Origin: Escherichia coli
GTDB taxonomy: Bacteria > Pseudomonadota > Gammaproteobacteria > Enterobacterales > Enterobacteriaceae
Length of the DNA: 64,000 nucleotides
Reading direction: 5' to 3' (one strand)
Assembly: GCF_009931435.1 (NCBI RefSeq)
Contig: NZ_CP043414.1
Numbering within the stretch: position 1 is the first letter of the stretch; each line of letters opens with the position of its first letter. Both the position numbers and the translations under genes were made by a program. The notes beneath the pieces are model-generated. The model saw only the letters and a program-made list of their open reading frames with translations. It had not been told where the DNA came from and ran no database searches. Positions 54,147-54,856 of this stretch are shown one piece after another.

Positions 54147-54856
54147 AGATTATTCTCTCTATAAAAAATAACGAAAATTTTTCTGATTAGTTTTACCGCA
54201 TTTAGTTACAATAACCTAGCTATGTCAAGTCTGATGTTATCCTAAATTTCATTTTTGTTATATTATCCTCTAATTCTTAAGGCACACGTTTGAAAAGCGT
54301 CGACTTTCTCCTGTATGCTCTGAAGGTATCATTTACTCTGATTTTTCACGCAGTGTGCCGGATAGTTTTCTGTCAGGATAGAGCCCTAGATGACACGGAT
54401 GACCGCTGATGACCTGAATATGATCATGTCGCTAACATTCGCCATGGGTAATATTATTAGCCAATCCCGCCCCATCTGTTCATTCTGCTCCTGAATGCCC
54501 CCCCCCCGAAGTCAGCAGACTATGGCCTCGTTGCTGACATGCTCAGAGCCAACTCCTTACCCCCTTACGTAGAAGCAATCTCAGGCACCATTAGTGATTA
54601 CGGTAACCGAGCAGTTGTATTACACCGAACCGACTACCGCTATCATCAACACCTATCTTTGGGGCATAAAAGCGTGGCATAAAGGAAGCAACTAGGCAGT
54701 GATTATGTAAGTACATCTGTAAAACGGACCATCCATTTTAAATATCCTCTGATCCCCCTCAATATCCACCTCTAGCACAAAGCGGACAACCACGCTAGCT
54801 CTCCCCTGTACCATGAAAATTTCAATTCACATATGTATTAATGCTCTTTAGTCTCT

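Follow-up and report, generated by a model that had tools for sequence, protein, structure and literature searches.

Whether a long homopolymer upstream of a defence-type gene acts as a genetic switch or is part of a decaying element is the question raised by a run of ten cytosines in an Escherichia coli prophage. In the contingency loci known from Neisseria, Haemophilus and Campylobacter, the repeat tract forms part of the coding frame or the core promoter of the gene that it switches, and strains retain it as a tract; simple-sequence phase variation of such kind is rare in E. coli. The original prediction for the 64,000-nucleotide stretch of DNA analysed here (the window) had been that the C run, together with an (A)8 run inside the adjacent split nuclease-NTPase gene, resembles a phase-variable contingency locus, with a degraded element as the fallback. 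The reading favoured here, with a probability of about 0.8, is that the run is a neutral slippage hot spot in the relic of a pseudogene; as such it is a feature of an ordinary, already known kind. The locus is delimited as follows:

51236 to 54764, unstranded: the whole cargo module, in the variable slot of a Qin-like prophage, from the DUF977 gene to hokD/sok (comparison with other Qin-like prophages)
51641 to 54146, minus strand: the nuclease-NTPase gene, 834 aa when intact and split into 332 + 500 aa in the window (open reading frames and domain matches)
54498 to 54507, plus strand: the poly-C run, C10 in the window and C7 to C11 among near-identical copies (sequence and copy comparison)

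The sequence (...CCTGAATG CCCCCCCCCC GAAGTCAG...) places the run exactly where it had been predicted, as a C10 on the plus strand with the flanks CTCCTGAATG-C10-GAAGTCAGCAG, and the distance of 'about 350 bp' to the split gene amounts to 352 nt from the start of the tract to the ATG (54146, minus strand). The spacer that harbours the tract extends over 710 bp from the DUF977 stop codon (54857, minus strand) to this ATG. According to a homopolymer census, the C10 is the only run of at least 9 nt in the 64-kb window, followed by one A8 and three T8 runs. Under an independent-bases model approximately 0.14 runs of C≥10 plus G≥10 are expected, and a C10 or G10 run was present in 10 of 100 dinucleotide-preserving shuffles (p ~0.1); by composition alone, a C10 is uncommon, yet nothing extraordinary. 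Real E. coli DNA avoids such runs, as G:C runs of 8 bp are already outliers in E. coli K-12 (PMC8510543).

The region had been predicted to be non-coding, and on the strand of the NTPase gene no open reading frame spans the tract. On the other hand, the tract is not situated in anonymous spacer, but within a dead integrase gene, and the only open reading frame that holds it is the decayed integrase frame, which lacks a ribosome-binding site. DNA match, tblastn and alignment concordantly identify the decayed beginning of a tyrosine recombinase gene of plasmid type, so that the fallback of a degraded element was the appropriate one. The relic consists of two parts:

54255 to 54389, plus strand: the upstream region of the integrase relic, 72–76% identical to that of intact plasmid integrase genes (DNA search and alignments)
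54390 to 54689, plus strand: a decayed Xer-like plasmid tyrosine recombinase, codons 1 to about 113 of 329 (tblastn and DNA alignment to the gene on IncFII contig L021)

A sensitive DNA search aligned window positions 54255–54432 with 72–76% identity to Enterobacter, Klebsiella and E. coli IncF plasmids, on which the matching stretch comprises approximately 130 bp 5′ of a 329-aa tyrosine recombinase gene and the first codons of this gene. A promoter-like TTGAAA-18-TATGCT at 54290–54319 has its L021 equivalent in TTGAAA-17-TACGCT. Residues 1–112 of the intact recombinase align with the spacer in a single frame that is interrupted by two stops, TGA at 54492 and TAG at 54570 (tblastn, E 7e-05 as computed against a 901-nt database), including the blocks PRSQQTMAS/PRSRQTMAS and TAIINTYL/TATVNTYL. 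Alignment on the DNA level with the intact L021 gene required several indels, and the homology stops around codon 113, at window position 54689. The intact recombinase itself matches the XerC/XerD models with E 1e-38 to 1e-42, under their equivalog cut-offs. Because of the plasmid match, the alignment of residues 1–112 across the stops and the Xer-like character of the intact protein, 54255–54689 is what is left of a dead recombinase gene divergent from the NTPase gene, of which the promoter region and the N-terminal third persist, and merits annotation as an integrase pseudogene fragment.

By homology to its members, the relic belongs to the tyrosine recombinase (Xer/integrase) family. As a functional gene it does not qualify, as an uninterrupted open reading frame with the catalytic C-terminal domain was not found, and a search across the window for the rest of the integrase, including this domain, recovered no further integrase-like segment. 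The closest counterparts are Xer-like recombinases of IncF plasmids such as WP_023327721.1 on pEnt261, with which the relic shares the homologous promoter region and about 113 codons, while the order of integrase and NTPase gene is that of contigs L021 and L018. In contrast to those intact genes, only the N-terminal third, with stops and indels and devoid of the catalytic domain, is present in the window; since this whole domain is missing, the relic cannot work as a recombinase.

The ancestral arrangement was read from the closest relatives of the 834-aa protein. The IncFII contigs L021 and L018 encode an intact integrase of 329 and 332 aa respectively, divergently oriented at 243–244 bp from an NTPase gene, the product of which shows 93% (L021) and 72% (L018) amino acid identity to that of the window gene; window positions 51618–54412 align with L021 at 86% identity. 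At the site homologous to the tract, three intact integrases (L008, L009 and L021) possess a C6 run and the fourth (L018) a C4 run. The intact reading is CTG AAT/AAC TCC CCC CGC AGC CGG CAG ACC ATG GCC, encoding Leu-Asn-Ser-Pro-Arg-Ser-Arg-Gln-Thr-Met-Ala, whereby the tract site corresponds to integrase codons 47–49, Ser-Pro-Arg (TCC CCC CGC), and the relic reads CTGAATG-C(n)-GAAGTCAGCAGACTATGGCC. As intact integrases carry C6 at the homologous site, the poly-C tract arose by expansion from a coding C6 run.

The cargo next to the integrase unit, the gene with approximately 135 bp of upstream DNA, varies among IncF plasmids: L021 and L018 carry the NTPase gene there, pEnt261 and pZF34 other DNA. 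Homology breaks off in integrase-only and in gene-only plasmids at positions within approximately 10–65 bp of each other (window ~54255–54320; L008 ~3001; L021 3757–4000; L027 ~6635–6700), and this clustering could reflect a recombination junction used by the plasmid integrase.

Tract length was compared among the window, seven complete E. coli genomes, four more NCBI assemblies, two metagenome contigs, the only copies added by a metagenome scan with a gapped pattern, and one read-set contig. Such a check in related genomes had been suggested along with the original prediction, and the length indeed differs between strains, from C7 to C11, with a tally over 16 almost identical copies of C7 twice, C8 seven times, C9 three times, C10 twice and C11 once. 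Among the seven complete genomes, the spacer is 99.2–99.9% identical and the tract is the sole indel in 714 bp. Six copies of one identical 3.6-kb haplotype possess tracts of 8, 8, 8, 9, 9 and 10 nt. Strains H7 and GF3-3, with about 8 SNPs in common, are both C7, and MS119-7, MEI7BO1-21 and SOI121, identical in spacer sequence, are all C8. The window and the contig from read set SRR7527707 (L029) are identical over 4071 bp, the rare A8 included, save for C10 versus C8 at the tract, a difference that is at most suggestive of length heterogeneity within a culture. Counted modulo 3, the lengths fall three times into class 0, four times into class 1 and eight times into class 2 among 15 distinct genomes or contigs plus the window, such that all three frame classes occur in this small sample. 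Indels restricted to the run, no frame bias and a pace of change that exceeds the flanking substitutions are found in these few copies, as would be the case for a neutral hot spot. The shared retention of the relic in the E. coli copies is uninformative on selection, because all are recent relatives with 99–100% identity. As a fast-evolving marker, the tract can distinguish prophage modules that do not differ otherwise.

Alternatively, the tract might truly have one fixed length, and most of the observed differences would then stem from sequencing or assembly errors at a long G:C homopolymer. Several sequencing platforms are known to be weak at homopolymer lengths, and the window and L029, which differ over 4 kb at the tract alone, fit one strain read two ways. 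Against such an explanation, the length follows the SNP haplotype in two clades (C7/C7 and C8/C8/C8), two SPAdes-style metagenome contigs with 49x and 19x coverage read C9 and C8, and the 25-kb backbone of the window is without a frame-breaking indel in comparison with a 97.5%-identical genome. In addition, the other homopolymers of the module (A7/T7/A8/C7) are constant in all copies except for the inherited A8, so that a platform artefact is less fitting, since it should hit those runs too. A pervasive artefact is consequently considered unlikely; with lengths shared within haplotypes and tracking lineages, a clean backbone and constant other homopolymers, most of the tract-length variation is taken as real, while some differences could be technical noise. 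A systematic homopolymer error in the window's assembly was considered separately, and none was seen across 25 kb of backbone.

The second homopolymer of the original prediction, the intragenic (A)8, is real. Located at 53161–53168, it is one nucleotide longer than the A7 of intact copies (T7 to T8 on the sense strand), a change which breaks the 834-codon open reading frame into 332 + 500 codons. Because the A8 is also found in the independent read-set assembly SRR7527707 (L029), otherwise identical to the window, this frameshift is inherited or real and no assembly slip. Of the 16 copies with the C tract, 14 possess an A7 at this site, as does the partial contig L010, and A8 is confined to the window and L029; in plasmid alleles the run is only T6 (sense strand) owing to an Ile/Phe difference. 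A second, independent inactivation exists in E. coli H7, where an IS1A insertion (L003 3728–4425) breaks the NTPase gene. The E. coli prophage allele (L001 2496–5000) contains seven homopolymer runs of at least 7 nt, with 3.6 expected by synonymous-codon shuffling (P ~0.012) and 1.5 by mononucleotide shuffling, as opposed to zero or one such run in the 87%-identical plasmid alleles. Among those seven long runs, the A7 alone varies between E. coli copies, with an A8 in the single lineage of the window and L029.

The nuclease-NTPase gene has a low GC content and is represented by an intact copy at L001 2496–5000; the exact 834-aa protein is encoded in ~620 assembly blocks. Its 834-aa product shows a weak HsdR_N-like match at the N-terminus and a P-loop NTPase with weak NACHT/AAA_16/KAP-like matches. 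Homologues are distributed across many bacteria (396 at E≤1e-5 among 8000 candidates scored), and PADLOC, NCBIfam and PDB sequence searches gave no significant match. Elsewhere, homologues adjoin SIR2 plus DUF87 genes or a TIR gene. From these sequence comparisons, the protein looks like an uncharacterized single-gene defence candidate, which, in combination with the variable cargo slot, constitutes more interesting biology than the neighbouring tract. The unit that travels with the gene is bounded by two further features:

51618 to 51640, minus strand: a GC-rich hairpin (GGGGC...GCCCC) directly 3′ of the stop codon, kept in plasmid copies (alignments)
54147 to 54254, minus strand: the AT-rich upstream region of the NTPase gene, common to plasmid copies (alignments, extent of plasmid matches)

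The hairpin forms the 3′ end of the gene unit in common with plasmids. The upstream region contains the conserved block ATAGGATAnCATCAGACnTGACATAGCT with a TTGACA at 54228–54223, 77 nt before the ATG, likely to represent the promoter of the NTPase gene. In Klebsiella, Serratia and Enterobacter plasmid copies, the gene shows 86.7–87.4% nucleotide identity and the homology ends at window ~54264–54320, while integrase-only plasmids are homologous to the window from ~54255 onwards only. Since the homology of gene-carrying plasmids ends close to where that of integrase-only plasmids starts, the portable unit of the gene includes at most ~110–170 bp of upstream DNA. The tract lies at least ~180 nt past this unit and ~240 nt past the ~54255–54264 junction. 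The original prediction was to be abandoned if the tract were invariant in length and outside any promoter or UTR; the length does vary, and the tract is placed outside the upstream DNA that the gene shares with its plasmid copies.

Both observations bear on the proposal that the tract is a phase-variation switch of the nuclease-NTPase gene, in which the length of the G run would alter the spacing of a distal promoter or operator, or a leader, and so tune a costly defence gene in part of the population. The pattern of a contingency locus is indeed present to the extent that a repeat tract is polymorphic among close and near-identical strains (C7–C11, the sole indel of the spacer), and the tract is located 5′ of the NTPase gene within the same imported module. 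It is, however, found neither in a reading frame nor in the core or proximal promoter, but 352 nt from the ATG and inside the relic of another, divergent gene, and plasmid NTPase copies, which have only ~110–170 bp of upstream DNA in common, do not carry the tract sequence. As to action from a distance, the repeat tract of meningococcal nadA, a poly-C/repeat tract, reportedly acts from a promoter-distal position. A further promoter-distal precedent is the fim C-stretch of Bordetella, the length changes of which alter the transcript level (PMC1891110). [quoted passage not shown]

A weak sigma-70-like TGAACA-18-AATAAT (54482–54453) on the minus strand begins 16 nt downstream of the tract, but this match scores 9/12 and promoter-like sites are here no commoner than by chance, as the scan of 53900–55400 delivered six of them versus 3.5 ± 2.0 in shuffles. 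A terminator scan of the same region predicted none on the minus strand; without one between DUF977 and the NTPase gene, the tract may sit in a read-through leader during prophage induction. RNA folding of 54440–54570 was on both strands not better than that of shuffles (z −0.35 and −0.07), and an Rfam scan of 50000–58000 at E≤1 revealed nothing at the tract, with the far-off sok as sole significant match. Matches to isrK and ceN48 in the same scan were sub-threshold, at chance level, and were discarded.

The variation data point in the same direction. The second, intragenic tract, likewise expected to vary, is A7 in all but two of the copies and hence not variable in the population, and the length of the C tract is unlinked to the integrity of the gene, as C7 is found with the IS1 disruption, C8 and C10 with the frameshift and anything from C7 to C11 with an intact gene, with all three mod-3 length classes represented. 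Taken together, the polymorphism of the predicted pattern stands, its interpretation as a switch does not: a contingency locus is not supported, and a switch of the NTPase gene by the tract is regarded as very unlikely. Highly improbable, too, is the special case of an accidental stochastic switch arisen from pseudogene DNA, where spacing or leader effects of the G run would tune the prophage-borne defence gene; if true, lysogen populations would hedge immunity against the cost of the gene.

The tract could alternatively phase-switch a small plus-strand open reading frame that starts at ATG 54495, directly 5′ of the run. The sequence ATG-C(n) does present the start of an open reading frame, for which hand-derived outcomes are 24–25 aa with C7/C10, 62–63 aa ending at 54682 with C8/C11 and 13 aa with C9, and a plausible plus-strand promoter lies 175 nt upstream. 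Those frames, however, are the decayed integrase reading frames, no Shine-Dalgarno-like sequence precedes ATG 54495, every frame class is found among strains and the intact ancestor reads the stretch as internal integrase residues, which leaves this explanation barely credible.

For the favoured reading of neutral slippage within a decayed gene, the following course of events can be proposed. A fragment of an IncF plasmid with the divergent pair of an Xer-like recombinase and the nuclease-NTPase gene would have entered a Qin-like prophage at its cargo slot, whereupon the recombinase was presumably cut down to its first ~113 codons and then decayed. The in-frame C6 (TCC CCC CGC), presumably freed of coding constraint, then lengthened, with the tract gaining and losing C:G pairs by slipped-strand mispairing at a pace that would outrun point substitutions in the surrounding 3.6 kb. 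In the probable absence of selection on tract length or frame, the length would drift neutrally, and the NTPase gene would be regulated from the ~110 bp directly 5′ of its ATG, in which the tract would have no part. Slippage as the mechanism is suggested because it fits the exponential rise of E. coli indel rates with homopolymer length (PMC8510543), and neutrality is likewise a probable rather than an observed property. The relic documents the transfer of a defence-type gene plus the neighbouring integrase stump from an IncF plasmid to a prophage, and the tract illustrates clearly how a coding C6 became hypervariable (C7–C11) once its gene had died.

Among known systems, the homopolymer indel hot spots of E. 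coli mutation-accumulation studies are alike in the single-base changes of a mononucleotide run and in the steep dependence of the rate on run length (PMC8510543). They differ in that the tract is 7–11 bp here, equal to or longer than the outlier 8-bp G:C runs of E. coli K-12 (PMC8510543); it would persist because it is located in imported, non-functional DNA. With the C-stretches of Bordetella fim2, fim3 and fimX the tract shares the poly-C upstream of a gene and the single-base length differences among strains (PMC1891110), but those C-stretches are situated within a functional promoter, between the activator site and the −10, near the start codon, as opposed to a remote position in a relic. 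The contingency loci of Neisseria, Haemophilus and Campylobacter, phase-variable restriction-modification genes included, are similar with respect to a hypermutable homopolymer near a defence-type gene; the tract described here is, in contrast to theirs, neither located in a frame or core promoter nor conserved as a tract. Length polymorphism alone does not define a contingency locus.

The slot from DUF977 to hokD/sok, occupied in the window by the integrase relic and the nuclease-NTPase gene, contains in many other E. coli prophages a SMODS nucleotidyltransferase gene with SLATT genes and an unrelated recombinase pseudogene (L016 1968–5000; L017). This pseudogene was considered as the missing C-terminal part of the integrase and dismissed, as it shows no similarity. 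Direct or inverted repeats flanking the module were restricted to short pairs at chance level, and a search of a phage collection with the spacer gave no match. The sok antitoxin RNA match is strong (105 bits) and adjoins hokD (window 50788–50962, minus strand). A Fic/DOC-domain open reading frame follows downstream (49739–50233, minus strand); the Fic gene is also present in L013 and absent from most other copies. Of 5426 complete E. coli genomes, the best match to the chromosomal backbone of the window (1–25000, with gfc, etk, app and hya) is only 97.5% identical. The prophage cargo module (51236–54860) is 99.6–99.9% identical to copies in ordinary E. coli, and the difference between these two identities suggests that the host lineage is divergent and the prophage segment was shared recently.
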